Origin: an uncultured bacterium
GTDB lineage: Bacteria > Planctomycetota > JAJSAM01 > JAJVHW01
Direction of reading: 5' to 3'
NCBI GenBank assembly: GCA_937996235.1
Contig: CALKVK010000012.1
Location: forward strand, 145,139 to 209,138
DNA: 64,000 nucleotides
Made by a program: the position numbers and the translations under genes. Below, piece after piece: positions 16,210 through 54,069 of the stretch. The first letter of the stretch is position 1. Each line of letters opens with the position of its first letter. The notes below the pieces were generated by a model. That model was not told the DNA's origin and did not search any database. It was given only the letters and a program-made list of their open reading frames with translations.

Positions 16210-16376
16210 CGGACCTCCCCCGTCCCGGCTCCGCGGTCGGCCTCCTCTGCCGTCCCCGCGTCACCGACCCACGTGGGATCGAGATGCAGCGTCGTTGCAT
16301 CGGGAAGCGGCGGATGCGGACTTGAGGGAAATCCGGGTTTTAGCGCCGCGGCGGCGACGCGAGCAGCGGCGCACCG

Positions 16377-21386: not shown

Positions 21387-21973
21387 GCGCTCTCCCGCGG
21401 CGCGCGCAGGCGCGAGGACACCGCGCGCACCCAGGTGTCGGCGGCGAGTGCGTCGCCGAGGCCCTCCGCGACGGCGACGAACTCGTAGAGGCGATGGCGC
21501 CGGCGGCGGAACGACGCCGCGACCGTCAGAGCGCAGCACGCCAGGAGACCGTGACCGACTCCGAGCAGCACGACGTCGACGGCGAAGGATGGCGAGACCA
21601 CCGTGGACGCCCCCGAGCCGAGGAGTGCGAACGCCGTCCGCAGCACCGCCCAGAAGAGCAGCAACTCCACGAGGATGCGCGCACGCGACGCCGCCTCGTG
21701 CCGCCGCGACTCCGCCAGCGTCACGAGCGTCGGGTGGACGCACGCGACCGCGCCGACGACGAGCCACGCGAACGTGCGCGGTCCCGGAGTCGCCGCGTCG
21801 AGCGACGCGCCGCACGCGGCCGCGGCGAGTGCGACGCACGCGGTCGTCGCGAGGGGGACGGCCCAACCGCGCGACGTCCCCGGACCGGGCGACGGCTCGC
21901 GCGGGGCGAGCAGTTCCTCCCAGAGCGCGAGGGGCGCGCTGACCGGCGTCGACGGGCGCGAGGTATCGCTCAC
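21383..21973 (-). CDS. Small multipass membrane protein (~196 aa).
   Basis: Only the C-terminal ~196 aa of track ORF 21383..26242 are protein-like, with TM helices (WAVPLATTACVALAAAACG, AWLVVGAVACV, LVELLLFWAVLRTAFALLG, VVLLGVGHGLLACCALTVAA). GTG at 21973 overlaps the upstream stop (GTGA). Confidence 0.6.
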   Translation of the reverse strand: MSDTSRPSTPVSAPLALWEELLAPREPSPGPGTSRGWAVPLATTACVALAAAACGASLDAATPGPRTFAWLVVGAVACVHPTLVTLAESRRHEAASRARILVELLLFWAVLRTAFALLGSGASTVVSPSFAVDVVLLGVGHGLLACCALTVAASFRRRRHRLYEFVAVAEGLGDALAADTWVRAVSSRLRAPRESA

Positions 21974-24900
21974 GCCGGGAGCGCCTCGCCGTGCTCCATG
22001 TCGTCCTCCAGATCGTCCTCCATGTCGTGCTCCGCCTGCTGCGCCTCGGCGGGCGAGCCGGCCTCGACCGCGGGCTCCGCCGTCTCGGCCCAGTCCAGCT
22101 CGACGTCCACGTCGAGCGCGTCCGAGCCCGTCGTCTCCGCTTCGGTCGCCCCGGCCGCCGCCGCGGCCTCCTGCGCGCGACGGCGCCGCGACATGACGAA
22201 CCCGATGGCGCCGCCGAGCACCGCGAGACCGATCCAGACGAGGAACGCCCAGCGCGCCACGTCCGCCATCCACGCCGTCGCGGCGGCGAGGGCGCGCAGT
22301 CCGAGCCACGTGCCCGCGCACGCCACGGCGACCACGACCAGCCGGCGCGGCGCGACGTCCACGGGCCGCAGCGCGCCGCGGCGTTCGTTGCGCACGTGGA
22401 CGAGGAGCGCCGCCCCCGCCGCCGCGAGGAACGCGCCGCCGACGGCCGTGCGCAGCACGCCGGGACTCGCCGCGGGCGCGAGCACGTCGAGGCGCCACGC
22501 GAGCAGCGCGAGCCAGCCGAGCGGCACGAGGTGCGCGGCCGCCCACACCGGCGGCGCGTACCGCGGTGCGTCGCGCGCCGCGGCGGCGCGCTCGGATGCG
22601 GGACGTTCGTCCGCGAGCAGCGCCGAGACGACACGGTCCACCGGCAGCGCCGACAGCGCGCGCTCGAGTCGCCCGGGTGCGACGGCGTCGGCGTGACGTC
22701 GCGCGCACGCCGCGGTCCGCGCGAGCACGACGACGAGCACGAGCACCTCGACGACGAGGAGCGCACGCCAGTCGTCCCACGTCGCCGCGCGCGCCGCGTC
22801 GAGGACGGCGCCCGACCCGCCGTGGTGGCCGAGCAGCGCGCCGACGTGCAGGAGCAGCAGCTCGGACGCGAAGAGCCACCAGCGTCCGCGCAGGTCGGAC
22901 CGCGCCGCGGAAGCGCCGCACCCGAGCGCGTACACCGCGACGACCGGCATGACGACGTCTCCGACGCCGAGCTGGGCGAGGCCCCACCCGAGCGCCCACG
23001 CGACACCGAACGTGCACGGCGGCGCAAGCCACCACGTGCGCTCGGGACGCCGCTGCGCATCCGCCGACGCGGCACGCGGAGCGCGCCGCAGCAGCGCGGC
23101 GACGGAGCGTCGCACGCGCACGCCGAGGCCGTCGTCGGCGAACCCCAGGAACACCGTGTCGCGCAGCGCGTCCGCGTCCGGGTCGTCGGCCGTGGCCGAG
23201 CGGCGCCGCGCCTCGGCGAGGCGGCGCAGCCACGGACGCTCCTCGACCGCCACCTCGAGAGCGTCCGGGTCGGACGCGGACGCCGGGACGAGCCACGCGA
23301 GGAAGCTCGCACGGATCTCGCGCGCGAGCGGCTCGGGGAGCGCTTCGGTCAGGTGGCGCCGCAGCCAGTCCGGGAAGACGCCCGCGCGCATCCACGGCAG
23401 CCGCACCAGCCGCGTGAGGTCGGCGGACGTCCACGCGTCGGAGCCGTCGGTGTGCGCGAAGACCAGGTCGCCGAGCCGCTGGGTGAGGCCGTGGTGCACC
23501 TGCGGGTACACGGCGCACGCGCAGAGCCATGCGTACGTCTGCGGTCCGAGATACGCGCGCAGTTCCGCCAGCACGCGCGCGACCTCGTGCTCGGGCGGCG
23601 ACCCCGACGCGAGCCAGCGCTCCGCGCCGGCGCGCAGCGTGGGCGGGAACGCGGCGCGCCCGCCCGCGCCGCGGTGCGCGTCGAACGCGGCGAGGTCGCC
23701 GGGCGCCGCCGCGCGCGCCGGGGTCTCGAGGGCCGCGACCGCGAGACCGTCGGCGAGGACGGCGCGCTCCTCGTGCGACCACTCGTCGCGCGCGGCCGGG
23801 ACCACGGCAGAGCGTTGCGCCCACGCGTCGAGCCCCGCGAGCCACGGTGCCGCGCCGCCGCGCGGATCCCGGAACGTGGACGCCTCCGCGAACACCAGCA
23901 GCCGCCGGTCGCGCAGGCGTCCGACGAGGTCGTCGAGCCGCTCGGCGCGCTCCCCGCCGCGGCGCCGCACGACGCGCGGATCGCGCGAGAACTCGAAGCG
24001 CTCGACGTGCACGCCCTCCGACTCCAGACGGTCGAGCACGGCTGCGACGTGGTCGGCCTGCGCGTCGGCGGCGCTGCGCCGATCGACGAGCGCGACGTAC
24101 TCCGGCGTCTGCGGACGCGAGCGCAGGACGGGCGTCGGCAGGCCGCCCGCGGCGACGGTGCGCTCCACGCTGCGTTCGACGTCGAGGTCGCCGGTCACGA
24201 CGTCGGCGTGTGTGCGCAGGCGCGCGATGTCGGCGCGCAGCGTCGGGGCCACCGCGGAGCCGCGCGTGTGCTGCGGCACGGTCAGGAAGGCCGGCCGCGC
24301 GTCGTCCGCGACGACGCCGCGCCGCACGTAGGCGCGCGCGATTCCGCGGCGCACGACGACGCCGACCAGGAACACGCCCGCCAGCGCGGCCACGAACGGC
24401 AGCGGCGACGGCGCGGGCGCGCCCACGCGCCACACGCGCAGCGTGCCGTCGAGCGACGACGTCGCGATGAACGCACCGTCGGGGCTGAAACGCGCGTCGG
24501 TCACGGCTCCCGTGTGACCGAGCAGCACGCGCTCGAGGGCGCCGGTCCGGGCGTCCCAGACGCGGGCCGTCATGTCGGCGCTCGCGGTGACGATGCGCGT
24601 GCCGTCGGGACTCCAGTCGCCTCCCGTCACCCAGCCGTCGTGTCCGCGCAGCGCCACCACGGCGCCGTTCGTCACGTCGTAGATCCGCGCGACGTCGTCG
24701 GTGCGCGTGACCAACAGGGAGACGGAGTCCGGCGAGAACGCGATGGTCGCCAGGTCGCCGCGCGGTCCGGACCACGCCCGCGCCTGCGACCCGGTACCTG
24801 CGTCGAAGGTCCGAAGCGTGCCGTCCTCCGCGACTGCGGCGATCCAGTCGCCCGACGGACTCCACGCCACGGCGTGAGCAGGCGATCCACCAGTCGGCAG

Positions 24901-26964
24901 ATCTGCAGCGGTGCTGCCCGTCACAGCATCGACCACGCGCACGAGCGCGTCGTCGCACGCAGCCGCGATTCGTCCGCCGTCCGGGCTCCACGCGATGTCC
25001 TTGGCGCCCTCCATCGACGAGAGCCAGCGGACCTCGGCGCCTGTCCGACCGTCGCAAACGTGGACGGTCGCAGTGTCGGAGAGCGCGATCTGCCCGCCGT
25101 CCGGGCGGAAGCGTACTCGCCAAACGATCCTCCAGCGACCGGTCAGGGGACTGCTGGAGGCGCCCGTGCGCGTATCGAACAGCGCGTACGTCGCCAGACG
25201 GGATCCGTCCGGGCTCCACGCCGCATCCACCACAGGGAGTTCGTGCGGGCCGACATGCACGACCGCATCCGCGCCCGCCGCTGCGAAGATGGACGCGGCG
25301 CCGCGGACGGAGAGCGCCGCGATCCTCGTTCCGTCCGGACTCCAGCGAAGTCCGCGCAGCCGGTCCGATCCGGGCGTCGAGCGCCACGTGACTGCGTCCT
25401 CGAGGTGGGTCACGTCGAAGAGCGTGGCCGACGGGGACTCGCCGACGACCACGCGTCTGCCGTCCGCGGCCCAGGCGACGGCGACTGCGCCAGCCGTCTC
25501 CGCCGCGGTGCTGCGCGAGTCCAGCTCTCCCAGTTGCTCTCCCGTCACCGTGTCCCAAACCCGGGCCCCGGCATCCGACGCCGTCGCGATCCGTGTTCCG
25601 TCCGGGCTGAACGAACACGCGCTGACGACGCCGTCGGGGCTGGAGAGCTCGACGCTCGGTGCATCGCCGCTCACGGGCCAGACGCGTGCACCCTGATCCG
25701 CATACGCGACGAACCGGCTGCCATCTGCGCTCCACGACGCTCCGTGCAGCATGCCGCGCTGGATCTCGACCTCCGCCACGGTCACCGGCGCCGGGCCCTC
25801 CACGTCCCACACGCGCACCGTGCCGCCCTCGGACGCGACGAGCAGCCGGCGCGTGCCGGCGTGCCACGCGATCGCGCGGATCGGGAGCGGATGCGCCTGC
25901 AGCGCAGCGAACTCCGGCTGTTCCTGCGACGCGCTCCAGAGCCGCACGCTGCCGTCCTCGCAGCCCGTCGCCACGCGGCCGCCCGACAGCCACGACACGG
26001 CGGTGACCGGGGACGCGCACTCGAGGACGCTCGCGGTCGTCCCGTCCGCAGCGCTCCAGACACGGGCCGTGCCGTCGTCGGAGCCGCTGACGACGTGTGT
26101 CCCCGCCGCGTTCCACTCCGCCGCACGCACACGTCCCGTGTGCTCTGCGTACCCGACCACGTTCCGACCCGACTCGACGTCCCACACGCGCGCCGTCCCG
26201 TCCTCGGACGCCGTCAGCACGCGCGTGCCGTCGGGACTCCACGCGGCCTGCGTCAGCCGCTTCGAGTGGCCGGCGAGGACCGCATCGCAGCCGCCGTCGA
26301 GGTCCCAGAGACGAGCCGTGCCGTCGTCCGAACCGGTCAACAGGTGCTGCCCCTGCGGCGAGAACGAGACGAACGTGACCGCGGACTCGTGGCCGAGGAG
26401 CACGGGCGGCGACCAGCGCGAGCGGGTCCGCTCCACGTCCACGACCTGGAAGTCCGCCGACGACGTCGCCGGCGGCGGCTCGACTCCGACCGATCGAACG
26501 ACCTGCTGCGGCGGTCCCGGCTCCGGCTCGACGACGGGGTCGGACTGCGGCGGCGTGGGCCGGAACACGTCGAGCGCCCAGAGCGCTGCGACGCCAAGGG
26601 CGAGCACGACGAGCACCGCGAGCGCGACGCGCACCGTGCGCGATCCCGGGGCGGGCGTCCGCGGCGGCGCGCGTCGCGCGGGCCCCCTGCCACGGTCCGC
26701 GGTCGGTGCGACCGCGGGTGCGCCGCCGCGCCGCAGGCGCTCGCGCAGGTCGCGCTGCTCGTGCGGCGAGCGCGCGATCAGCGGCGCGAGCCAGTCGGCG
26801 ACGTCGTCCGGCGTCTCCCCCGCGGCGCCGCGTGCGACGAGCGCGAGGAACGCCTCCTGCACGACCAGGTGCTCCTCGACGCCGACGCCCCAGCCCTCGC
26901 GCCGCAGCTCGCGCAGGAGCGCGTGCAGCGCGGCGAGGCGCTCGGAGTCGGCGGGACCGCTCAC
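21970..26964 (-). CDS. Giant WD40-repeat / multipass membrane protein (~1664 aa). N-terminal helical region, one TM, at least 12 WD40 blades, a long middle region, and a C-terminal polytopic membrane domain with an acidic tail.
   Basis: GTG at 26964 overlaps the MoxR stop (GTGA). Canonical WD40 units (GHSKRLTQAAWSPDGTRVLTASEDGTARVWDVESG and similar, repeated). C-terminal hydrophobic helices. Ends ...DDLEDDMEHGEALPA at 21970. Confidence 0.8.
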   Translation of the reverse strand: MSGPADSERLAALHALLRELRREGWGVGVEEHLVVQEAFLALVARGAAGETPDDVADWLAPLIARSPHEQRDLRERLRRGGAPAVAPTADRGRGPARRAPPRTPAPGSRTVRVALAVLVVLALGVAALWALDVFRPTPPQSDPVVEPEPGPPQQVVRSVGVEPPPATSSADFQVVDVERTRSRWSPPVLLGHESAVTFVSFSPQGQHLLTGSDDGTARLWDLDGGCDAVLAGHSKRLTQAAWSPDGTRVLTASEDGTARVWDVESGRNVVGYAEHTGRVRAAEWNAAGTHVVSGSDDGTARVWSAADGTTASVLECASPVTAVSWLSGGRVATGCEDGSVRLWSASQEQPEFAALQAHPLPIRAIAWHAGTRRLLVASEGGTVRVWDVEGPAPVTVAEVEIQRGMLHGASWSADGSRFVAYADQGARVWPVSGDAPSVELSSPDGVVSACSFSPDGTRIATASDAGARVWDTVTGEQLGELDSRSTAAETAGAVAVAWAADGRRVVVGESPSATLFDVTHLEDAVTWRSTPGSDRLRGLRWSPDGTRIAALSVRGAASIFAAAGADAVVHVGPHELPVVDAAWSPDGSRLATYALFDTRTGASSSPLTGRWRIVWRVRFRPDGGQIALSDTATVHVCDGRTGAEVRWLSSMEGAKDIAWSPDGGRIAAACDDALVRVVDAVTGSTAADLPTGGSPAHAVAWSPSGDWIAAVAEDGTLRTFDAGTGSQARAWSGPRGDLATIAFSPDSVSLLVTRTDDVARIYDVTNGAVVALRGHDGWVTGGDWSPDGTRIVTASADMTARVWDARTGALERVLLGHTGAVTDARFSPDGAFIATSSLDGTLRVWRVGAPAPSPLPFVAALAGVFLVGVVVRRGIARAYVRRGVVADDARPAFLTVPQHTRGSAVAPTLRADIARLRTHADVVTGDLDVERSVERTVAAGGLPTPVLRSRPQTPEYVALVDRRSAADAQADHVAAVLDRLESEGVHVERFEFSRDPRVVRRRGGERAERLDDLVGRLRDRRLLVFAEASTFRDPRGGAAPWLAGLDAWAQRSAVVPAARDEWSHEERAVLADGLAVAALETPARAAAPGDLAAFDAHRGAGGRAAFPPTLRAGAERWLASGSPPEHEVARVLAELRAYLGPQTYAWLCACAVYPQVHHGLTQRLGDLVFAHTDGSDAWTSADLTRLVRLPWMRAGVFPDWLRRHLTEALPEPLAREIRASFLAWLVPASASDPDALEVAVEERPWLRRLAEARRRSATADDPDADALRDTVFLGFADDGLGVRVRRSVAALLRRAPRAASADAQRRPERTWWLAPPCTFGVAWALGWGLAQLGVGDVVMPVVAVYALGCGASAARSDLRGRWWLFASELLLLHVGALLGHHGGSGAVLDAARAATWDDWRALLVVEVLVLVVVLARTAACARRHADAVAPGRLERALSALPVDRVVSALLADERPASERAAAARDAPRYAPPVWAAAHLVPLGWLALLAWRLDVLAPAASPGVLRTAVGGAFLAAAGAALLVHVRNERRGALRPVDVAPRRLVVVAVACAGTWLGLRALAAATAWMADVARWAFLVWIGLAVLGGAIGFVMSRRRRAQEAAAAAGATEAETTGSDALDVDVELDWAETAEPAVEAGSPAEAQQAEHDMEDDLEDDMEHGEALPA

Positions 26965-27956
26965 GCGCCCCCGCGCCCCGCCTTCCACGTCGCGAAGATG
27001 CGACGCGCCGCCGCGAGATCCTCCTGGCCCTTCACGAGCGTTCCGAGGTCGCCGTCGGCCGACGCGGCGAGCGGGTTCGCGACGCCTTCCCCGGCGGAGC
27101 GCCGCAGCGCGGCGAGCCAGTCGATGAGCTCGGACGTCGCCGGCGGCTTGCGCAGGGGCGGCCGCGCGTCGCGCAGCGCACGGAAGAGCGCGAGCGCGTC
27201 CTTCACGAAGGCGCTGCCGGGCGCCGCCCAGGAGCCGAGGCGGCTCACGAGGATCTCGCCGAGGCGCTCCTCGTCGGGGAACTCGATGTGGTGGTAGACG
27301 CAGCGGCGCAGGAACGCGTCCGGCAGGTTGCGCTCGGAGTTGCTCGTCACGATGACGATCGGGCGCAGCGCGGGGTCCGCGGCGATCGCCGCGATGCCGA
27401 GCTCCGCCACGCGGAACTCCATCCGCTCGATCTCGGCGAGCAGGTCGTTCGGGAAGTCGCGCGGCGCCTTGTCGACCTCGTCGATCAGCACGACGCTGCG
27501 CCGCGGACCGTCGTGTGCGAACTCCGACGGCAGCCACGTCGCGACCTCGCCCGACTCGCGCGACAGCAGCACCGCGCGGCCGAGCGCCTCGTAGCGCAGG
27601 AAGCGCAGCCCGTCGGCGAGCGAGCTCCCGCCCGCGTCGCGCGCGTGGAAGCGGCCGAGCGCGTCGTACGTGTAGAAGAGGTGCCGCGCCTCGCTCGTCG
27701 ACTTCGTGTCGAAGCGCAGCGGCGCGCCGAGCCGCAGCTCCCACGCCACGCTGTAGGCGAGCTGCGTCTTGCCGGTGCCCGGTTCGCCGGTGAGCAGCAG
27801 CGGGCGGCCGAGCAGGATCGCGAGGTCCACGGCGCGGCGCAGCCGCGCGTCCACGCGGTAGCCGGCGGGGTCCTCCGCACGCGCGCGATCGACGGACGGC
27901 AGGTCGACGGCCGGCGCCTCGCGACGCTCGCCGCTCCCGCGGTAGATCATGTCCAT
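26961..27956 (-). CDS. MoxR-like AAA+ ATPase (AAA_5 family, 331 aa).
   Basis: Walker A LLLTGEPGTGKT; Walker B VVLIDEVDKA; sensor and arginine-finger region IVIVTSNSERNLPDAFLRRC. Length is typical of MoxR. Confidence 0.9.
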   Translation of the reverse strand: MDMIYRGSGERREAPAVDLPSVDRARAEDPAGYRVDARLRRAVDLAILLGRPLLLTGEPGTGKTQLAYSVAWELRLGAPLRFDTKSTSEARHLFYTYDALGRFHARDAGGSSLADGLRFLRYEALGRAVLLSRESGEVATWLPSEFAHDGPRRSVVLIDEVDKAPRDFPNDLLAEIERMEFRVAELGIAAIAADPALRPIVIVTSNSERNLPDAFLRRCVYHHIEFPDEERLGEILVSRLGSWAAPGSAFVKDALALFRALRDARPPLRKPPATSELIDWLAALRRSAGEGVANPLAASADGDLGTLVKGQEDLAAARRIFATWKAGRGGA

Positions 27957-27969
27957 GGGCAGTCCTCCG

Positions 27970-29220
27970 TCATCCAGGGGTGCGGAGCCTCTCGCGCAGG
28001 ATGCGGCTCAGCGCCTGCGCGACCGGATCGAGCGGCGAGCGCTGCGTCGCCGGCAGGGCTCGCGCGAGGTCCTGCTCGGGCAGGCGCCGCTGCTGCAGCA
28101 GCCCGAGCACGCGCGGATGCCGCGCCCACGCGGTCACGTCGGCGAAGTCCACGTCGTCGAGCTCGGGCAGCAGCGCGACACGGCCGCCCGCCGCGTGACG
28201 CCGCGCGAGGTCCGTGAGAGACGCGCGGACGCCGTCCGCGAGCTTTCTGTCCCGTTCGTCGAAGCGCACCCACGGCACGACGACGGCCGGCGCCGTGCGG
28301 TGCACGGGCGCCCACGCGGCGAGGCGCGAGACCACGGCATCGAGGCAGCGCGGCGTCGCGTCCGCGTCCCAGCGGCAGAACGGCACCTCGCTGGTCACGA
28401 GCAGCGCGCTCGGCCACGCGCCGGCGGCGTCCGCGGCGGCGGCGTGGCCGCGCGCGCCGAGCGCCTCCGCGAGGCGCTGCTCGAAGCGGCGCACGCACGC
28501 CGCGGGGTCCGTCTCGCGCGGCCACTCCACGTCCACCGCGTGCACGACGTCGCCCGCAGGTGCCGACGCGAAGTCCGCGAGCAGCTCGTCGCGCACGCGG
28601 TCCAGGAACTGCTCGTGCGCCTGGGCGAAGCGGCCGTGCAGCAGCCAGACGAACGGCCGCGACACGTCGAGGGCGGGAACCGCGGCGAGGTCGCGCAGCG
28701 CGTCGCGTTGCGGCGTCCGGTCGCACAGGTAGGGCAGCGCCGGCGGCACGGGGTCGTGGCTCCCGATCGCGGTGTTCAGGTCCGCGAGGACGTCGCTGTG
28801 GAGCGCTTCGACCGTGGCGAACGGCTTCGACGTGTGCCGCTGGCAGATGAGAGCGCGAAACGCCCGCGCCCGCTCGGCCTCGGCACGGCCGAACCCCAGG
28901 AAGCCGGCGCGCGGCTCGGCCTCCGTGTGGAAGAACAGCATCTGCTCGACGTCCGCGGCGCACGCGGTCTCGTACTCGAGATGGGTGATGCTGCGCCCTT
29001 CGTGGCCGTCGGGCACCCAGCCGTAGCGGCGTCCCAGCAGCAGGACGAACGCGTCACAGTTCCGCACGTCGGTGGTGCACTTCGCGACGACCGTGCGCCT
29101 GTCGGATCCGTAGTCCTCCATGCCGATCGGCTGGTGGCCGAGGCGCAGGATGGCCGCGCGCACCGCCGCCCGCGCCTCGCGCAGGTCCTGGAACGTCGAG
29201 GAGACGTACACGCGAGCCAC
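27970..29220 (-). CDS. DUF4062 domain protein (416 aa) with a C-terminal extension of unknown function.
   Basis: N-terminus MARVYVSSTFQDLREARAAVRAAILRLGHQPIGMEDYG...CDAFVLLLGRRYGWVP...ITHLEYETA matches the DUF4062 signature as I recall it. Non-biased composition. Confidence 0.8.
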   Translation of the reverse strand: MARVYVSSTFQDLREARAAVRAAILRLGHQPIGMEDYGSDRRTVVAKCTTDVRNCDAFVLLLGRRYGWVPDGHEGRSITHLEYETACAADVEQMLFFHTEAEPRAGFLGFGRAEAERARAFRALICQRHTSKPFATVEALHSDVLADLNTAIGSHDPVPPALPYLCDRTPQRDALRDLAAVPALDVSRPFVWLLHGRFAQAHEQFLDRVRDELLADFASAPAGDVVHAVDVEWPRETDPAACVRRFEQRLAEALGARGHAAAADAAGAWPSALLVTSEVPFCRWDADATPRCLDAVVSRLAAWAPVHRTAPAVVVPWVRFDERDRKLADGVRASLTDLARRHAAGGRVALLPELDDVDFADVTAWARHPRVLGLLQQRRLPEQDLARALPATQRSPLDPVAQALSRILRERLRTPG

Positions 29221-29263: not shown

Positions 29264-30166
29264 TCAGAGTCCGAGTCTGTCGCGCAGCCGGGCGACGACC
29301 GCCGGCTGTGCGAGGTACTGCGCGATGCCGTGGCGCCAGGCGCCGGAGTTCGAGACGCGCACGTCCGCGACCGTCTCCTCGCCGTCGGCGAGGTAGTCGT
29401 TCGCGAGCACGGTGTCGAAGCCGCACACGGGATCGAGCCGGTCGTAGACGTTCGTCCACGCGCCGAGTGCGAGCTTCGCGCTCGGGTACGCGGTGTCGTA
29501 CTCCCACGCGTCGCCGAAGCCGTCCTGCACCTCGGACAGGCCGAGCGGGCTGCCGATCGTGAACAGCGCCGCGACGCCGGGCGTGTCGGCCACGTGCCGC
29601 AGGCAGTCGTACGCGATCACGGTGCCCATGCTGTGCGAGACGACGACGTGCGGCCCGGCCGCCGGGGGGACCGCGCGCAGAGCGGCGACGAAGCGCTGCC
29701 GGATCTCGCGCCGGACGCGGTACGTGACGCCGGGGCGCGGCCGCGACTCGGCGTCGTAGAGGTAGTGGTGGCAGTCGCGCAGGAGCCGCCGCATGAGGAT
29801 TTTCTCGAGGAAGTGCGGCAGCGGGACCGCGCGCTCGGACGCCGCGGCGAACGTCGCCCCGCCCTCGCGGATCGCCTCCTCCGCGAGCTCCTCGGTGCGG
29901 CGGCGGAGCGCGGCGACGAACGCGCGCTCGACGACGTCCGCACCGACTGCGAGCAGCTCGTCCTCCTCCGGCGCCGCGCCGCGCTGCGCCGGGTCCTCGG
30001 CCTCGGGCCGCGCGTAGAGCACGTCGGCCCAGTACACCATCGAGCTCGTCACGCCGCGCGCCGACAGGTCGAGCCCGCCCTGGCGCAGCGCCGCGAGCCA
30101 CTCCGCGAGGAGCACGTCCTGCGGCGGCTTGTTCAGGAGTCCGTGGACGAACGTCACGTGGGGCAT
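29264..30166 (-). CDS. Alpha/beta-hydrolase fold protein (lipase/esterase-like, 300 aa).
   Basis: Nucleophile elbow VVVSHSMGTVIAYD (GxSxG-type). Conserved downstream Asp/His candidates. Confidence 0.8.
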   Translation of the reverse strand: MPHVTFVHGLLNKPPQDVLLAEWLAALRQGGLDLSARGVTSSMVYWADVLYARPEAEDPAQRGAAPEEDELLAVGADVVERAFVAALRRRTEELAEEAIREGGATFAAASERAVPLPHFLEKILMRRLLRDCHHYLYDAESRPRPGVTYRVRREIRQRFVAALRAVPPAAGPHVVVSHSMGTVIAYDCLRHVADTPGVAALFTIGSPLGLSEVQDGFGDAWEYDTAYPSAKLALGAWTNVYDRLDPVCGFDTVLANDYLADGEETVADVRVSNSGAWRHGIAQYLAQPAVVARLRDRLGL

Positions 30167-30197: not shown

Positions 30198-33100
30198 TCA
30201 CGCGCGTCCCTCCACCGTGGACAGTGCGGCCGCCAGCGCGGCGAGGTCGGCGGCGTCGCGGCGTCCCGCGGCGGTCTCGGGAGCGAGTTCGCCGAGGGTC
30301 GCGAGCTGCGTCAGGACGGAGTCGCGCTCGCGTGGCGAGGCGCCGCGCGCCGCCGCGCCGAAGCACTCGCGTATCCGCGCGACGCGCGCTCCGAGTGCGT
30401 GCCCGGCGAGCGCGTGCAGGATCTCCATGTCGACGACGGCGAGCTGCCACCACACGTCACGGCGCGCCTCCGGCACCTGCGCGTGGTCCTGACGCGCCGC
30501 GTCGAGGACCGCGCGGACGACGCGCGCCGAGCGCCGGAGGGCCCACAGCAGTGCGGCCTGGTTGCACGCGGGGTAGTAGCCGGCGCCGGGCCGCCCGCGG
30601 GCGGCGAGCTCGACACCGCGCGCGTACTCGCGCTCGGCCTGGGCGAGCAGACGACGACGCTCGCGTCCGACGGCGTGCGTCGCCCGGCGCTTGAACGCGC
30701 CGCCCACGAGCGATGCGCGCTCGCACGTCGGCGGCGCGATCGCGTCGAGCGCGCGGCAGCGCTCGATCGCCGTCTCCCAGAGCTGGCGCGCGCGCGCGAG
30801 CCGTGCGGCGTCCGCGCCGCCGCCCGCGATGCGATGCGCGAGCCGGTCCTCGAAGTTCGCGAGCTGCTCGATGTCCTCGACGCGCAGCGCGGAGCCGTCG
30901 CTCGCGAGCGCCGCGCGCAGATCCGCGACGGCCTCCTCGAAGTCGCCGAGCTCGCCGCGCAGGCGCCCGCGCGCCACGAGCACGCGCGCGCTGAGCCACT
31001 CCGGACGCAGCGCGGCGTCCACCTGCGCGAGACGGCTGCGCACACGCTCCGCCGAATCCGCGCTCGGCCGGCGCAGGTTGTGGAGACCGATGCGCAGCAC
31101 CGCGAGCTCCTCCGCCACCTCGCGCTCCGACACGTAGCGCGGCACCTCGCCGCCGCGCCACGGCGCGGACGTCAGCCGGAAGTGCGGGTCGCCGTAGCAC
31201 TGGAACGCGCCCCACGTCGTGCTCCCGAGCTCGTGCGCGGAGCGGCGCGCCGCGCTCACGGCGTCGCCGAACGTCTCGCCGTCGAGCAGGCGTTCGTAGA
31301 ACGCGGTCGCGAACGCGCGCGCGGCGGCGTCGTCCACGGCCCACCCCGCGACGACCAGGCAGCGCACGCCGATGCGCATCAGCTCGACGGCGACGCTCGC
31401 GGCGAAGCGGCCGTGCTGCGGCTCGTCGGTCCGGCCCAGGTGGCAGCAGCTCAGGAACACGAGCGAGGGGCACGCGGGGAGCTGACGGATGACGTCGGCC
31501 GTCAGCCGCACGTCGTCGCCGATCACCACGCCGGTGCGCGCGGGGTCCGCGGCGTCGAAGGTGCCGTGCGCGGCGACGTGCACCACCACGTAGTCGTTCG
31601 CGTAGAGGCGCTGCAGCACCGCGGACGCGTCCTCGTCGATCGACGTCTCGACGACGTACCGGGCGCGGGTGAGCTGCTGCGAGACGCGCACGGCCTCGGC
31701 GCGCGCCCCCGGCAGGTCCGCGAACGCCGGCGCCTGCGGCGTGCCGACGACGAGCACCGCGCCGCCGCGCGCCGGCTCGACGACCTCGGCGGCGCTGCGA
31801 TCGCGGAACTGCCGCACGACGCCGAGCAGCGCCGGCGACGCGCCGTCGTCGCTGCGCCGGCGCATCAGCAGCTCCCACGGGTAGCGCGCGGTCAGCGGGT
31901 CCACGACGAGCACGAGCTCGCCGGCGTCCGCGATCTCCTCCTTGAAGGGACCGGGCACCAGCAGGTCGAACAGCGTGTGCGAGATGGAGTCGGGCGCGAT
32001 GCCGCTCGTCGTGCGCTCCGTCGCGCGCAGGAACGCATCCACGAGAGTGTGGATCGTGGGCTGCGTGATGACGGGCGCCCGCGCGCGATCGGTCACGTAG
32101 AGGTACTCGAGTCCCGTGGTGCGCGCGGCGTCGCCCGCGTCCTCCTCGCGCCGCGCGCTGACGTGCAGGCGATTCCACCAGCGGTCCGCCGCGGCCCCCG
32201 TGCGGCCGCCGGGACGGCCGTCGCGCCCGATCACGAGCGCGTCGTCCGCGTGCACGTCCGGGAGCCCGCCGCTCTGCCGCGCGCGCTCGCGCGCCGCGTC
32301 GACCAGCGCCCGTGCCGCCGCCACGGCCACGTCCTCGCTCAGCTCGACGAACTCGAGCCGCGCGATGCGCGCGCCGGCGTTCGGACCGTCCGGCTCCGCG
32401 AGCCGCGCGTTGACGCGCACGACCGCGTCGAGGATCGCCGCGATGGACTCGCGCACGTCGAGCGCCCGGCCGCCGCGCGTGCCGATCAGGAGCGACGACA
32501 GCGTGAGCTCGTGCGGCGTGCCGTCGCCGCGCGCGTCCGCGGCGCGGAGCGCCCACTCGAGGACGCCGGCGTGCACCGTGCGCCGCAGCCGCCGCGGCGT
32601 GAGGTCGCCGACGTCGCCGAGCCCCACCACGATCGCGCCCGGCGGACGGCCGGCAGCGCCGTCTTCCGCGGGCGGCGCGTCCACGACGAGCACGTCGCCG
32701 ATGCGCCCCGGGTACTGCCGCACGGCGAAGCGCCGCGCGAGCCGCCCGTCGAGACGCGAGTCGAGGTAGCGCTCGGCGCCGAACAGGCCGTCGCCCTCGT
32801 AGTGGCCCACGAGCACGGGACCGTGCGCGGCGTGCAGACTGCCGTGCACGACCTCCGCACGCAGCTGCGGCCCGACGACGGCCTCCTCGTCGCCGAGCAC
32901 GCGCGCTGCGAGCAGTCCCACGACGCCGTCCTCGGGCGGGAACGTGGACGCGGCCGCGACGATCGTCTCCGGCCGCACGGGAGGACGCGGCGGCACGCGC
33001 GCGGAGACTCCCGCCTCGAGCAGGTCGCGGATGCCCGCGACGAGATCCGCGGCGGACGGCAGCCGCTCGTGGCGCGCGGCCAGCCAGCGCGCCGTGGGGC

Positions 33101-35447
33101 GTTCCGCGAGCGTGGGATCCGCGAGGCACCAGCCGTCGCCCGCGTCGGGCTTGATCTCGGCGCGCAGCCGTGCGTCGGCGGCGCCGCGCTCGAACGACAC
33201 GACCGTGCGGTCGGCGGCGCCGAGCACGGTCAGCGCATCGAGCGCGAGCAGCGCCTCCGCGGCCTTGCGGCGACGCGCCCGTCCGGCGCGCAGGAACTCG
33301 CGCGACGGCGCCGCGTCGACCGCGCGCGCGCGCCACCACTCCGGCTGCCCGCAGGGCTCGGGCAACTGGTCGTGCACCGCGGGGCACTCCGCGAACACGC
33401 GCCGCAGAGCAGCGCGGCGTCCGCGTCCGTCGAGCAGGCAGAGCGACTCGAACAGCGCGCCCTCGCCGAGGGCGAGCGACAGCACGGCGCCCGAGCCGAC
33501 GGTCGGCGGTCCGAGCAGCACGACGCGGCGCAGGCGCGCGGGCCGCGGCACGCCGGCCAGCGCGAGCGCGACGGCGAGGGCGCCGTAGCCGTGCGCGATC
33601 ACGTGCACGTCGCACGCCGCGCACGCCGTCTCGATCCGCTCGCGCAGCACGGCGGCGACGACGTCGAGCGACTGCCGCCAGTCGTACGGCACCGGCTCGA
33701 CGAGCGCAAACCCCTCGAGCGCCCGCTCGAGCGCGATCCACTGTTCGGGGGCCGCGAGTCCCACCGCTCGGACCACGCCGACCGGCGCGGCGAGTCGCTC
33801 GAGACGGCCCGCGACGAGCGCGTCGCGGTCGGGCCAGAGCGGCCCGTCGTCGTCGGCCAGCGACGACCCGAGGAAGTCGGGCACGAGCAGGACCGCGCGC
33901 GAGGGCGCCGCCACGTCGGCGGCCTCGTCGCGCCGCCGCACGGGCACGAGCCGCTCGGGCGGCCCGCCGCGGAACGGCCGGAAGCCGCGCGGACGCAGGT
34001 CCGCGCCGTGCTGCGCGTCGAGTGCGGCATCGACGCTCTGGCGCGTGTCGCGTCCGCCGAAGTACGTGAAGTGGCTGACGGCCGGGCTCTGGTGGAACGC
34101 GGCCACGGCGCCGCCGCGCCCGCCGGTCGCGCCGTACATCGACGCCGTCTGCACGACGAGATCGTTCGCCTCGCCGAAGAACGCGTACGCGGCGAGCGCG
34201 CGCAGGCGGCGCCAGACGCCGTCGCCCTGCAGGTTGCCCGCCACGACGCGCAGCTCGTCGCCCGACGACGCGGGCGCGAGGTTCAGGTAGCGCGTGAGCG
34301 GCGAGCCGGGGAGCTGCGCCTCGATGCCCGGCACCTCCGCCGGCTCCGCGCGCCGGCGGACGATCTCGAGCAGCGTGCCGGTGATCGCGTCCACGACCTC
34401 CGGCACGGCCACGAGCGCGCCGACCAGGTCCACGAGCACGGAGAGGAATGCGTCGAGTCGCTCCGACGCGAGCGTCGTCCCGCTCGCGGGGCACGCGACG
34501 CGCACGAAGCGGCGGATCGCGATGCGCTTCTCGCGCAGCGCGCCCGCGAGCTGCACGAGCTGCTCGCGCTGCCGCGCGCGCACGTCCGCGTCTTCGCCCT
34601 GCGCGCGGAACCCCGCGAGCGCCGCGGCGCTCGGCTCGCCGCTCCGGCACAGCAGCTCGCCGACGAGTCCGCCGCGCGAGTGCGTCAGGAGGTCGAGCTG
34701 CACGCCCGGCGGCAGCCGCTCGACGGCGTGCAGCGCGTTGGCGGCGGGCGTGCGCGAGAGCGTGTGGTGCTCGAGCGCGAGCACGCGCCCGCGGTAGCGC
34801 TGCCACACGTGGCGCCAGCGCGCCGTCGCGACGGCCTGGCCCGACGACGCCTCGCGGCGGAAGAAGTCGCCGAAGCTCCCCTCGGTGCTCGACGCGGTGC
34901 CGTGGATCAGCAGCAGCACGGGCTCGTCGCCCGCGAGCGCCGCGGCGTCGTACGGCTCGAGCGAGCCGTCGCTCGCGACGGAGTAGAGGTCCTCCGCGTG
35001 CGGGAGCCGCGACTCGAGCGCAGCGACGGCCGCGGCGGTCCCGAGCTTCGCGATCTCCTCGTCGACGTCGATGCCGAGCAGCGACAGCGCGCGGATGCCG
35101 AGACCGAGGGCGTCGCGCGTCGCGCCCGGCAGCGGCAGCGCGGACGGCACGACGAAGGCCTCGGGCTCGCCCCGCTGCGACGTCGCGTCGCGCGCGCCCG
35201 CGGGCAGCCCGCCGAACAGCTCGGGCAGACGTGCGACCGACGTCCACAACACGCCGCCGCCGTCGAGTTCGAGTCGGACGAGTCCGTGCGCCTCGCCGGG
35301 CGACACCTGCACGGACTCCGCCCGCGCCCCCGCGCGGTCCGCGGCGAACTCGAAGCGACGCGCCGACGCGATCCGGTGTCGCGCACTCGGGGACGCCACG
35401 CCGTCGGCCCGCGTCTCCCGCGCAGGGATCGTCAGCGTCCGCGCCAT
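30198..35447 (-). CDS. Giant multidomain protein (1749 aa): N-terminal lipase-like alpha/beta-hydrolase domain(s), central CHAT (caspase-like) protease domain, C-terminal TPR-like repeats.
   Basis: Hydrolase region PVLLLIHGTASS...DLLTHSRGGLVGELL and a second degenerate one (VHVIAHGYGALAVALALAG). CHAT signature YVVVHVAAHGTF ... SLVFLSCCHLG. Helical repeats at the end. The overlapping plus-strand 1923-aa ORF is Arg-rich antisense. Confidence 0.85.
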   Translation of the reverse strand: MARTLTIPARETRADGVASPSARHRIASARRFEFAADRAGARAESVQVSPGEAHGLVRLELDGGGVLWTSVARLPELFGGLPAGARDATSQRGEPEAFVVPSALPLPGATRDALGLGIRALSLLGIDVDEEIAKLGTAAAVAALESRLPHAEDLYSVASDGSLEPYDAAALAGDEPVLLLIHGTASSTEGSFGDFFRREASSGQAVATARWRHVWQRYRGRVLALEHHTLSRTPAANALHAVERLPPGVQLDLLTHSRGGLVGELLCRSGEPSAAALAGFRAQGEDADVRARQREQLVQLAGALREKRIAIRRFVRVACPASGTTLASERLDAFLSVLVDLVGALVAVPEVVDAITGTLLEIVRRRAEPAEVPGIEAQLPGSPLTRYLNLAPASSGDELRVVAGNLQGDGVWRRLRALAAYAFFGEANDLVVQTASMYGATGGRGGAVAAFHQSPAVSHFTYFGGRDTRQSVDAALDAQHGADLRPRGFRPFRGGPPERLVPVRRRDEAADVAAPSRAVLLVPDFLGSSLADDDGPLWPDRDALVAGRLERLAAPVGVVRAVGLAAPEQWIALERALEGFALVEPVPYDWRQSLDVVAAVLRERIETACAACDVHVIAHGYGALAVALALAGVPRPARLRRVVLLGPPTVGSGAVLSLALGEGALFESLCLLDGRGRRAALRRVFAECPAVHDQLPEPCGQPEWWRARAVDAAPSREFLRAGRARRRKAAEALLALDALTVLGAADRTVVSFERGAADARLRAEIKPDAGDGWCLADPTLAERPTARWLAARHERLPSAADLVAGIRDLLEAGVSARVPPRPPVRPETIVAAASTFPPEDGVVGLLAARVLGDEEAVVGPQLRAEVVHGSLHAAHGPVLVGHYEGDGLFGAERYLDSRLDGRLARRFAVRQYPGRIGDVLVVDAPPAEDGAAGRPPGAIVVGLGDVGDLTPRRLRRTVHAGVLEWALRAADARGDGTPHELTLSSLLIGTRGGRALDVRESIAAILDAVVRVNARLAEPDGPNAGARIARLEFVELSEDVAVAAARALVDAARERARQSGGLPDVHADDALVIGRDGRPGGRTGAAADRWWNRLHVSARREEDAGDAARTTGLEYLYVTDRARAPVITQPTIHTLVDAFLRATERTTSGIAPDSISHTLFDLLVPGPFKEEIADAGELVLVVDPLTARYPWELLMRRRSDDGASPALLGVVRQFRDRSAAEVVEPARGGAVLVVGTPQAPAFADLPGARAEAVRVSQQLTRARYVVETSIDEDASAVLQRLYANDYVVVHVAAHGTFDAADPARTGVVIGDDVRLTADVIRQLPACPSLVFLSCCHLGRTDEPQHGRFAASVAVELMRIGVRCLVVAGWAVDDAAARAFATAFYERLLDGETFGDAVSAARRSAHELGSTTWGAFQCYGDPHFRLTSAPWRGGEVPRYVSEREVAEELAVLRIGLHNLRRPSADSAERVRSRLAQVDAALRPEWLSARVLVARGRLRGELGDFEEAVADLRAALASDGSALRVEDIEQLANFEDRLAHRIAGGGADAARLARARQLWETAIERCRALDAIAPPTCERASLVGGAFKRRATHAVGRERRRLLAQAEREYARGVELAARGRPGAGYYPACNQAALLWALRRSARVVRAVLDAARQDHAQVPEARRDVWWQLAVVDMEILHALAGHALGARVARIRECFGAAARGASPRERDSVLTQLATLGELAPETAAGRRDAADLAALAAALSTVEGRA

Positions 35448-35568: not shown

Positions 35569-36471
35569 TCAGCGCGCGCGGAAGGTGTCGTTGGCCCCCG
35601 GGACGCGCGCGAGATCGAGTTCGAGTCGCACCGCCGCAGCGCCCTCGCCGACGACGGCGCCCAGCGCATATGCGCCGTAGACGAGGACCTCGCAGCGCGC
35701 CGTCGTGCGAGTCGTTGCGCTCGGTGGACCGTCGGCCCTGGACAGCGTCTCCGGGTCGTGGCAGAAGCGGATGGCACTGGGGAGCGGTCGATCGGGGTCG
35801 ACCGTCCGCACGCACGCGTGGACTCGGAACCAGTGCTGGGAGCCGACCTCGCGGCCGCGCGCGGGGTCGGGAGGCGGCAGCGGCTCCACACGCGCGCTGA
35901 GCAGGTACGGATGGACGAACGCGCGCCGGCCGAACTGCCCGCGATTGCGGTCCTCCACGCAGGTGCGTCCCGTGACCGTCAGCGCATCGAGCAGGATGAA
36001 GCACTCGAGGTGCGTGCGCAGTTCCGCCGCCGACGCGTAGCGCAGCACGCGGAAGCCCTGCACGTCGAAGTGGACGTCGTCGCCCGCGCGCACGACGTGG
36101 ACGACCGGGCGGCCGATCGCGTGCGCGAAGCCGAGCTCGTAGTAGCAGTTCGGCCGCGCGTGCGTCAGGTCGGCGATGACGAAGTCGGCGCCGCGGATCG
36201 CGTCGCGGATCTCGTCGATCATCTGTCCGCCGGACGGCAGCTCGTCCATGCGGTACGAGCGGAACCCGAACCGCCTCGCCGCGGGCGCGATCGCCTCGTG
36301 ACGCACCGCGCGCAGCTCCGGCGTGTCGGCGAACGACGAGATCACGAAGCAGTAGGGCTCGTCGGGGTCGAACGGCACGGGTGCCCCGGCGCAGGGCTCC
36401 GGCGCCGCGGCATCGGCGACGCCGCTCGCCTCCGGCTGCGACGCAGCCGGCTTCCGTCTCGCCGTCCCCAT
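35569..36471 (-). CDS. TIR-like / nucleoside 2-deoxyribosyltransferase-like Rossmannoid domain protein (~300 aa).
   Basis: ATG at 36471 (MGTARRK...). Motifs CFVISSFADT ... ADFVIADLTHARPNCYYELGFAHAIGRPVV match the D..NPNV.YELGYA..LGKPV signature of NDT/TIR-like domains. A 121-bp gap separates it from the giant CHAT gene downstream. Confidence 0.7.
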   Translation of the reverse strand: MGTARRKPAASQPEASGVADAAAPEPCAGAPVPFDPDEPYCFVISSFADTPELRAVRHEAIAPAARRFGFRSYRMDELPSGGQMIDEIRDAIRGADFVIADLTHARPNCYYELGFAHAIGRPVVHVVRAGDDVHFDVQGFRVLRYASAAELRTHLECFILLDALTVTGRTCVEDRNRGQFGRRAFVHPYLLSARVEPLPPPDPARGREVGSQHWFRVHACVRTVDPDRPLPSAIRFCHDPETLSRADGPPSATTRTTARCEVLVYGAYALGAVVGEGAAAVRLELDLARVPGANDTFRAR

Positions 36472-36641
36472 GCGCACCTCCCGACACACGGCGTGCCCTG
36501 CGCGGTCCGGGCGACTCCACTCGCCGGGCCCGCTCGTCGCAGCGAGGATGCCCGGACGCACCGCTCCGCGTCCACACTCGAACCGCGCCGCCGTGCGGCG
36601 AGGCTCCGCAGATCGCCGCCGCCCGGGCTACCCTCCCGCGC

Positions 36642-53880: not shown

Positions 53881-53950
53881 CGTGAGGCTCCCTCTCGCCG
53901 TGGTCAGCGCGCGGCTGCGCGCGGGACGAGGACGTCGTCCCCACCGCACG

Positions 53951-53967
53951 TTGGCAAGCCACGTGCC
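53951..53967 (-). promoter_or_regulatory. Sigma54 (-24/-12) promoter driving the qNOR gene.
   Basis: Minus-strand reading GGCACGTGGCTTGCC gives GG-N10-GC with TGGCACG-N4-TTGC character. It lies ~70 bp upstream of the norB start and is divergent from norR. Confidence 0.6.
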
Positions 53968-54069
53968 GGGATCGCGCGGCGCGGAAGCGTGCCTGCGGGA
54001 GCCTGCGCGATATGGATTCGACAACGCTGCGCGTTATGATTGCGACATCTTCGTTGTCCGGAGAACAGC

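Follow-up and report, generated by a model that had tools for sequence, protein, structure and literature searches.

A DUF4062/NIR-iSTAND gene with a MoxR-clade ATPase gene and a large membrane protein gene as a candidate ternary conflict cassette in an uncultured planctomycete

The NIR-iSTAND protein and its reading frame

The 64,000-nucleotide stretch of contig CALKVK010000012.1 (assembly GCA_937996235.1) of an uncultured bacterium of the Planctomycetota, which is called the window throughout, carries on its minus strand three consecutive genes for a DUF4062/NIR-iSTAND protein (gene 1), a MoxR-clade AAA+ ATPase (gene 2) and a large membrane protein (gene 3), which on balance probably make up one cassette of the kind known as MoxR-centred iSTAND ternary conflict systems (Table 1). 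Since mechanical lists of open reading frames are crowded at the GC content of the window (~75%), the coding frames were chosen with a codon-position GC plot, in which the frame of gene 1 is the true coding one, with a third-position GC of 0.92-0.97 and a second-position GC of ~0.5 across 28000-29200. Gene 1 has its own ribosome-binding site (AGGAGG) upstream of the GTG start, and its TGA is followed by the 13 nt CGGAGGACTGCCC, which include the ribosome-binding site GGAGGA, and then by the ATG of gene 2. The TGA of gene 2 overlaps the GTG of gene 3 (GTGA), which extends to 21970. A first-pass annotation of this DNA, made from its letters, had placed a MoxR ATPase gene 13 bp away from gene 1 and had quoted three motifs from the N-terminus; there are exactly 13 nt between the TGA and the ATG, and VYVSSTFQDL, GHQPIGMEDY and CDAFVLLLGRRYG are all found in the translation. 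No NCBIfam or PADLOC model matches the gene 1 protein, and a word-indexed protein search with its full length returned the protein itself and one DUF4062 fragment.

The N-terminus of the gene 1 protein is a DUF4062 domain, as had been proposed, since the Pfam model PF13271 matches residues 3-86 over its full length (model positions 1-82 of 82) with an E-value of 2.1e-25 and 89.2 bits against a cutoff of 24.7. In the AlphaFold2 (AF2) model residues 1-100 form a TIR-like flavodoxin-type α/β fold, with a predicted local distance difference test score (pLDDT) mostly of 86-98 (nine of ten 10-residue blocks), and Foldseek aligns this head with the TIR domains of RPP1, RRS1, SARM1 and TIR-STING as well as with nucleoside 2'-deoxyribosyltransferase. 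Thus both a DUF4062 and a TIR-like match were obtained for the N-terminus, and the relationship to TIR domains, about which the first-pass annotation was uncertain, is also borne out by experiment, as in three preprints of 2026 DUF4062, there given the new name NIR, was shown to be a TIR-like NADase that depends on a single essential Glu (bioRxiv 2026: 10.64898/2026.05.01.722283, 10.64898/2026.06.25.731849, 10.64898/2026.09.04.749371). To call the domain uncharacterised is therefore outdated. Glu-dependent NADase activity of DUF4062/NIR is known from Swarozyc, PsAvs2, Vulcan, Vesta and Evangelion, the essential Glu being E97 in KpSwz (KpSwz^16-C), E108 in PsAvs2, E98 in Vulcan, E103 in VstA and E87 of the pair E87-Y88 in Eva01, there together with the N-terminal aromatic F11 (bioRxiv 2026 preprints). 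All DUF4062/NIR proteins assayed so far convert NAD+ to ADPR and nicotinamide and deplete NAD+, with no signalling product reported, and DUF4062 genes are enriched close to defence genes (bioRxiv 2026 preprints). MoxR, AAA+ partners and iSTAND are unmentioned in these three preprints. In a 42-sequence alignment of the gene 1 family the positions Y5, S7, S8, D12, R17, C48, D51, G67, E82, Y83 and A86 of the DUF4062 part are near-invariant, with E82 kept in 40 and Y83 in 38 of the 42 members. Judged by motif and position, not by direct alignment, E82-Y83 and F10 would correspond to E87-Y88 and F11 of Eva01 and to E97 of KpSwz^16-C, and the head of gene 1, with an apparently intact catalytic Glu E82, is expected to perform the same conversion of NAD+ to ADPR and nicotinamide.

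The C-terminal region of ~300 aa had been described as unique. It corresponds, however, to the Pfam family iSTAND (PF19995), which matches residues 163-254 with an E-value of 7.1e-7 and 30.2 bits against a cutoff of 24, although the match is partial and covers model positions 1-91 of 163. Moreover, 176 representative relatives (E<=1e-3) came out of an exhaustive HMMER search with residues 96-416 against a library of 1.84 billion proteins. In most of them the length is 400-450 aa and the match lies at positions ~112-420, and due to this similar length and match position they can be assumed to share the architecture of gene 1. A domain scan, which covered the 72 closest relatives of the C-terminal region, matched iSTAND in 67 of them (best E-value 4e-21), and the heads found there are DUF4062 (45), TIR_2 (12), CHAT (4), EAD2 (1) and trypsin (1). 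At the slot of the P-loop, where STAND proteins have GxxxxGK[ST], the 42-sequence alignment has the family consensus H-G-[DE]-[ED]-x-[QE], and LLPYLCDR is conserved. By column counts in this alignment, GK[ST] is not present at the P-loop slot and the third strand has no conserved Walker B acidic residue. The AF2 model of the whole gene 1 protein, built on the same alignment, reaches a pLDDT of 91.4, and its best PDB match in Foldseek is the plant TIR-NLR RPP1 (TIR and NB-ARC, ~450 columns, E-value 6.6e-7), with ORC/Cdc6-type AAA+ proteins further down. In the model the chain ends at residue 416 after a short helical domain, and there is no C-terminal repeat sensor.

The gene 1 product is a miniature protein of TIR-like and NB-ARC-like parts with an eroded nucleotide site and no repeat sensor. 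The statement of the first-pass annotation that DUF4062 is usually fused to a STAND module holds for gene 1 as well, but the STAND module here has lost its P-loop. The contrast that was drawn in the same place, of a protein coupled to MoxR rather than to a STAND, had to be given up, because the C-terminal region is itself of STAND type with an eroded P-loop. An active STAND defence protein, Avs- or NLR-like with a NIR head, was also considered for gene 1 and was rejected, as there is neither a Walker A GK[ST] nor a C-terminal repeat sensor.

Linkage of iSTAND to the MoxR-clade ATPase and the membrane protein

Conservation of the three-gene linkage was analyzed in one genome per species, scanned with DUF4062-derived patterns from a 10-sequence alignment. 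This gave 80 loci, mostly of generic DUF4062 genes, which served as the control set. Hidden Markov models of NIR, iSTAND, MoxR and the "Mid" module of gene 3 were run on the six-frame open reading frames of all 80 loci, and tblastn agreed with the outcome. iSTAND follows NIR in 15 of the 80 loci, and in all 14 iSTAND loci with downstream sequence the next gene is a MoxR orthologue with 44-56% identity. The gene after that encodes a large Mid-bearing protein, which shares two regions with the 1664-aa protein, in 13 of 13 loci where the sequence continues. In contrast, only two of the 65 NIR loci without iSTAND have MoxR, both on short contigs (Fisher test, p ~1e-13, with loci counted as independent and kinship ignored). 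The tight coupling to a MoxR-clade ATPase that had been read from the spacing is thus a conserved adjacency (14/14 evaluable iSTAND loci). The co-occurrence of DUF4062 with AAA_5 genes, which had been suggested as a check, is complete where iSTAND is present but nearly missing where it is not (2/65), so that there is no general link of DUF4062 to these ATPases. Furthermore, the same pair of MoxR and Mid follows a TIR_2-iSTAND gene (L082), CHAT-iSTAND genes (L084 and L086) and a head-less iSTAND gene (L085), among them plasmid examples with CHAT-iSTAND on Haliscomenobacter pHALHY01 and with head-less iSTAND on an Acaryochloris plasmid. Since TIR- and CHAT-iSTAND genes have the same MoxR and DUF4062 genes without iSTAND do not, the MoxR coupling belongs to iSTAND, and the head is swappable.

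Single loci of this set showed further features. On the Acaryochloris marina S15 plasmid (L085, NZ_CP064924.1 11574-22668) the cassette of iSTAND, MoxR and a pentapeptide-repeat protein lies between two tyrosine recombinase genes, which suggests that such cassettes move as mobile units. Complete NIR-iSTAND/MoxR/Mid cassettes are present in the cultured actinomycetes Saccharopolyspora dendranthemae (L011), Paractinoplanes toevensis (L013) and Virgisporangium aurantiacum (L015). On two short contigs of metagenome-assembled genomes, L020 (1-3425) and L079 (1-2284), MoxR comes after NIR, and in L020 Mid comes next, but no iSTAND was detected between NIR and MoxR, and in L020 the gap is too short to hold one; either a compact variant or a fault in the assembly may account for this. 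An apparent fusion of iSTAND and AAA_5 (P0032; L083 7601-11604) was rejected, because the locus contains many fragmented open reading frames, with the matches to DUF4062, MoxR and Mid broken up among several frames, so that it is most likely a frameshift-ridden assembly.

The alignment of gene 2 with its orthologues retains GEPGTGKTQ, VVLIDEIDKA, TSN and LRRC, and the ATPase is predicted to be active. The best PDB match of its profile is Midasin with an E-value of 3e-14, and the plasmid orthologues of Acaryochloris and Haliscomenobacter are labelled "MoxR family ATPase" in RefSeq. Among curated families the top match of gene 2 is MadB of the MADS defence system (NCBIfam, E-value 3e-24), which with 86 bits is far below the cutoff of 475, and there are weak sub-threshold PADLOC matches to TRIP13, IetA/IteA and mad8. 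To judge from these profiles, gene 2 appears to be related to the MadB/TRIP13/IetA-type defence ATPase families but not to be a member of them.

Gene 3 has the layout that is common to the third proteins of the related loci, namely an N-terminal domain, a transmembrane hairpin, Mid, and then transmembrane segments with a variable tail. Its N-terminal domain has no Pfam match, and similarity to CoxE was not obtained in that search. The tails in the relatives are FGE-sulfatase domains (one to four copies), Yip1-like multi-transmembrane regions, a PBP transpeptidase or pentapeptide repeats. The loop of the hairpin is 15-70 aa long in most relatives, whereas it has ~720 aa in gene 3, where it holds the WD40 region (Pfam E-value 1e-81, 9 repeats). 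The WD40 insertion is therefore specific to this copy, and from its length of ~665 aa it probably forms two propellers. When the positive-inside rule is applied to the hairpin loop, the WD40 region is predicted to be extracytoplasmic, so that the propellers would face outward, which suggests envelope sensing. The third component of a Myxococcota metagenome-assembled genome (L005, 12306-17147) has a hairpin-loop insert of ~480 aa with sub-cutoff Pfam matches to PQQ_2, a β-propeller family, and to CarboxypepD_reg, and is predicted, as the second example in the family, to carry domains that face outward. It ends in a C-terminal PBP dimerisation and transpeptidase module.

The Mid module is conserved with 31-37% identity over ~390 aa in 15 loci. 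Its AF2 model, which was built with 7 database homologues, has the topology β1-α-β2-β3-α-β4-α-β5-α-β6 and a pLDDT of 59.6 overall and of 74-89 in the α/β core. A vWA fold is defined as a six-stranded Rossmannoid in which strands 1 and 4 each end in an Asp. In Mid a conserved Asp closes strand 1 (LIDRxSxxD), and in the family an Asp also stands after strand 4 (FsDG). In the three actinomycete cassettes L011, L013 and L015 the Asp of strand 1 is replaced by Glu (VIEQ). The most suggestive Foldseek match of Mid, although weak, is chain G of the NorQD complex (probability 0.90, E-value 0.03), and since NorQ makes up the hexamer of chains A-F, chain G is most likely the VWA domain of NorD. Moreover, the third proteins of Pfam-verified iSTAND loci on plasmids are homologous to Mid with 27-30% identity and E-values down to 2e-32, and they likewise have no Pfam VWA match. 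From this homology Mid can be assigned as the conserved core of the component that was described as the vWA component of such systems (Kaur et al., 2020; see below), and it probably represents the divergent vWA domain and linker of iSTAND systems.

Proposed working of the cassette and competing explanations

Four types of MoxR-vWA ternary conflict systems have been defined by prediction, and the iSTAND systems are among them (Kaur, Burroughs, Iyer & Aravind, eLife 2020, PMC7159879; extended in eLife 2021, PMC8195603). Their MoxR has no VMAP-type extensions, their iSTAND proteins have TIR, DRHyd, caspase-like, trypsin-like or EAD domains at the N-terminus, and their vWA component has a helical (CoxE-like) N-terminal domain, in ~28% of cases also transmembrane segments at the N-terminus, and C-terminal effectors that vary, of which FGS is the commonest (Kaur et al., 2020, PMC7159879). 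The cassette has the same gene order of an enzymatic head with iSTAND, MoxR and a large protein with a predicted helical N-terminus, transmembrane segments and a variable C-terminus. Gene 2 also lacks VMAP-type extensions, the heads are interchangeable, FGS is a recurrent tail in the relatives, and gene 3 is homologous to the third proteins of the Pfam-verified iSTAND loci of Acaryochloris and Haliscomenobacter. Thus the cassette fits the description of Kaur et al. in every feature compared, with the exception of the vWA fold of Mid and the CoxE similarity of the N-terminal domain. Unlike the systems described there, it has a DUF4062/NIR head, which is named in neither of the two papers, and a WD40 double propeller in a predicted extracytoplasmic hairpin loop. 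Furthermore, iSTAND systems were found to be nearly absent from actinobacteria in 2020, whereas relatives of the cassette are present in Saccharopolyspora, Paractinoplanes and Virgisporangium. As the system type has already been predicted computationally and the chemistry of the head has just been established, the cassette is a new example of a described type.

With Swarozyc, Evangelion, NIR-Avs2, Vulcan and Vesta the cassette shares the head family, in which Glu-Tyr and the N-terminal aromatic residue are kept, and the attachment of an oligomerising or sensing module. However, those systems are single proteins (with AUX, HEAT, or an active STAND with TPR) or a pair with an alkaline phosphatase, and an inactive STAND, a MoxR ATPase and a membrane partner are absent from all of them. 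Gene 1 was accordingly rejected as a member of Swarozyc, Evangelion, Vulcan or Vesta, since its C-terminus is iSTAND, its partners are MoxR and a membrane protein, and there are no HEAT or phosphatase matches. Like the TIR-NLR and Avs-type receptors (RPP1, PDB 7crc), gene 1 has a TIR-like head followed by an NB-ARC-like domain, but it lacks Walker A, Walker B and the C-terminal repeat sensor, and the candidates for ATPase and sensor are encoded by the neighboring genes. DUF4062 is still on a STAND scaffold here, with the functions of scaffold, NTPase and sensor probably divided among three genes. The NorQ-NorD pair also combines an AAA_5-type ATPase of the MoxR clade with a partner, NorD, which the α/β core of Mid matches weakly (E-value 0.03). 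NorQD inserts metal into nitric oxide reductase (PMC13036017) and, unlike the family of this cassette, lacks variable tails, a TIR-like head and a partner with iSTAND. Its cryo-EM structure offers a mechanism for the remodelling of a VWA partner by MoxR, in which the partner is inserted in the pore of the hexamer and twisted, and is thus a mechanistic template for the MoxR/vWA-like step of the cassette (PMC13036017).

We consider it fairly likely that the three genes form one MoxR-centred iSTAND ternary conflict system that works as follows. Gene 1 would be the output and adaptor protein, with a NIR NADase head on an inactive STAND oligomerisation module, and the MoxR ATPase of gene 2 would make up in trans for the NTPase missing from the STAND module. 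In the resting state NIR-iSTAND may be kept inactive in a complex with the vWA-like module. A cue would be picked up by the membrane protein through its variable parts, or else directly by iSTAND, upon which the MoxR hexamer might remodel its vWA-like partner with ATP as NorQ does with NorD. This remodelling would free or assemble iSTAND oligomers, so that the NIR domains are brought together. Complex formation, the direction of signalling, the NADase output of the gene 1 protein and the immune role are inferred from the gene content and the related systems. The direction in which the membrane protein senses and NIR executes is favored because NIR is a proven NAD+-depleting effector and the tails resemble binding modules. 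A more tentative and rather unlikely extension is an outside-in immune switch, in which the WD40 double propeller outside the membrane would detect an event at the envelope, for example an adsorbing phage, a foreign cell or a toxin secreted by others, and signal via the vWA-like module and MoxR to the ATP-driven release and oligomerisation of NIR-iSTAND, so that NAD+ destruction would precede, or do without, the recognition of any component of the invader in the cytoplasm. If true, this would be a surface-sensing trigger for a TIR-like NADase, and a split STAND with an inactive scaffold, a separate AAA+ motor and a separate repeat sensor would replace the single-chain design of NLRs.

Several points weigh against the ternary system as proposed. 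The vWA fold of Mid is not established, as neither the window copy nor 16 homologues gave a relevant Pfam match even at an E-value of 10, no relevant PDB match was obtained by sequence profile search, the best Foldseek E-value against the PDB is 0.025 with a model of pLDDT 59.6, and this copy has Glu instead of the family Asp after strand 4. The Midasin match fits a place of gene 2 in the MoxR/midasin clade, but the assignment comes from motifs and profile, while the clade is defined by a helix-2 insert. In the window no phage or mobile-element hallmarks were seen beside the cassette. In the literature searched no experimental test of any iSTAND ternary system was found, and the immune role is therefore assigned by analogy. 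Finally, signalling could also run in reverse, with iSTAND as the sensor and the membrane tail as the effector.

This reverse direction is part of another explanation of the same three genes along the lines of Kaur et al., in which iSTAND senses the invader, e.g., by its nucleic acid, NIR makes an NAD-derived second messenger or ADP-ribose signal in place of NAD+ depletion, and killing is carried out by the variable C-terminus of the membrane protein, here a multi-transmembrane region that might perturb the membrane. iSTAND has indeed been proposed as a nucleic-acid receptor (Kaur et al., 2021, PMC8195603), and the C-terminal position is hypervariable (Yip1-like multi-transmembrane, FGS, PBP, pentapeptide repeats), as is expected of effectors. 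However, the DUF4062/NIR proteins assayed deplete NAD+ to ADPR and nicotinamide with no reported signalling product, and FGS, PBP, WD40 and pentapeptide domains resemble binding or sensor modules rather than toxins. Dore et al. also argue for VMAP systems that the variable domain of the vWA protein senses, MoxR relays and a third component executes. This explanation is therefore considered somewhat unlikely.

The cassette might also be only a part of a larger unit of seven genes, together with the TIR/nucleoside-deoxyribosyltransferase-like, hydrolase-CHAT-TPR and α/β-hydrolase genes upstream, e.g., with a protease cascade that is triggered by the NIR product. All these genes are encoded on the minus strand and spaced by 121, 31 and 43 nt, and a promoter and terminator scan, which is uninformative at this GC content, placed no terminator-like site on this strand. 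Caspase-like domains with an associated α/β-hydrolase recur in ternary systems (Kaur et al., PMC7159879), and relatives of gene 1 have CHAT heads on iSTAND. Against this stands that tblastn found none of the three upstream proteins in any related locus, that they have no effector-associated adaptor domain in common with gene 1, and that independent conflict systems often cluster. The larger unit is thus quite improbable, and the upstream CHAT, hydrolase and TIR-like genes are ruled out as conserved partners. As they are missing from all related loci, they are regarded here as neighbors in a cluster of conflict genes rather than parts of the system, and they are probably a separate caspase-like/TIR conflict module.

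A non-immune function is a further alternative, in which MoxR and the vWA-like protein are a chaperone pair that assembles or remodels an envelope WD40 protein and NIR-iSTAND links it to NAD or nucleotide metabolism. Characterised MoxR-VWA pairs (NorQD, CoxDE, RavA-ViaA) are assembly chaperones, and the flanking genes of the window are ordinary (GDH, qNOR, Na+/H+ exchanger). However, swappable TIR, CHAT, trypsin, EAD and NIR heads in combination with hypervariable tails are typical marks of conflict systems, an enrichment of DUF4062 genes near defence genes is known, and there are copies on plasmids flanked by integrases, which leaves the chaperone function very improbable. Hardly credible, finally, is gene 1 as a self-contained single-gene defence of the Swarozyc/Evangelion type with an incidental MoxR neighbor: Swarozyc and Evangelion are single proteins of similar total length, in which a DUF4062 core is joined to a divergent AUX region that defence requires, but the C-terminal region of gene 1 is iSTAND and no orphan AUX, MoxR (14/14) and the Mid protein (13/13) follow in all evaluable loci across phyla, the genes are joined by a 13-nt spacer and then an overlapping junction, and the three DUF4062 preprints mention no MoxR or AAA partners.

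MoxR ternary systems, which were predicted in 2020, occur widely among bacteria that have complex lifestyles. The NIR head, which is present in 45 of the 72 closest iSTAND relatives, would give these systems a measurable output, the loss of NAD+ that depends on one Glu, and with this readout the separate contributions of MoxR, the inactive STAND and the membrane partner can be asked for.

Surroundings of the cassette in the window

Several STAND- or caspase-type signalling or conflict genes are present in the 64-kb window besides the cassette (Table 1). Going upstream from the cassette, the three next genes are co-directional with it and follow each other with the gaps of 43, 31 and 121 nt given above.

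Table 1. Genes of the cassette, their modules, and neighboring conflict-type genes (positions in the window)
Feature	Position	Strand	Characteristics and evidence
NIR(DUF4062)-iSTAND gene (gene 1)	27970..29220	minus	416 aa, GTG start; open reading frame list, third-position GC frame, Pfam, AF2, Foldseek
NIR/DUF4062 TIR-like domain, predicted NADase, residues 1-100	28921..29220	minus	Pfam; putative catalytic E82 in SITHLEYETA; aromatic F10
iSTAND module, residues ~155-416	27973..28758	minus	LPYLCDR motif; P-loop slot HGRFAQAHE; helical ARC-like tail; Pfam, alignment, fold
MoxR-clade AAA+ ATPase gene (gene 2)	26961..27956	minus	331 aa; Walker A GEPGTGKTQ, Walker B VVLIDEVDKA, sensor-1 TSN, LRRC arginines; Pfam AAA_5 and AAA
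Large membrane protein gene (gene 3)	21970..26964	minus	1664 aa, GTG start overlapping the MoxR stop; occupies the place of the "vWA component"
N-terminal helical domain, residues 1-105	26650..26964	minus	predicted cytoplasmic; tblastn matches in 6 related loci; Arg-rich before transmembrane segment 1
Transmembrane segment 1 (113-131), WD40 region (~180-845), transmembrane segment 2 (853-871)	24352..26628	minus	Pfam WD40, transmembrane scan; Arg-rich stretch after transmembrane segment 2
"Mid" module, residues 916-1293	23086..24219	minus	six-strand α/β domain, then helical domain; predicted cytoplasmic; conserved in related loci
C-terminal multi-transmembrane region, residues 1329-1587	22204..22980	minus	~5 hydrophobic helices, acidic tail after 1587; variable "effector" position
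α/β-hydrolase-like gene	29264-30166	minus	300 aa; directly upstream of the cassette
DUF7379 α/β-hydrolase, Peptidase_M17_N-like stretch, CHAT and TPR-S protein	30198-35447	minus	1749 aa
TIR/nucleoside-deoxyribosyltransferase-like gene	35569-36471	minus	300 aa; PADLOC TIR effector, E-value 6.5e-11
Ser/Thr kinase-AAA_16-TPR gene	~36500-40259	plus	divergent from the cassette
Second CHAT-TPR gene	13261-16260	minus	CHAT, E-value 1e-52

The remaining genes of the window belong to ordinary metabolism, including those for GDH, qNOR and an Na+/H+ exchanger. At 51553-55659 the gene for a nitric oxide reductase of the qNOR type, a NorB that includes a cytochrome c-like domain, adjoins that of a divergent GAF-sigma54-HTH activator, which is NorR-like. 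A sigma-54 activator speaks against an actinobacterial source of the DNA, in spite of the GC content of 75% and of the best matches of the GDH catalytic domain, which are ~73% identical and have mixed labels, among them Actinomycetes and proteobacterial fragments of metagenome-assembled genomes; from these genes a Myxococcota-like origin would be plausible. Next to the end of gene 3 the third-position GC plot has an ambiguous coding signal at 21400-21970. Downstream of the cassette, at 20208-~21400 on the minus strand, lies a gene with no Pfam match and no counterpart in the related loci, whose product has a lipoprotein-like N-terminus (LALALVVAACG).

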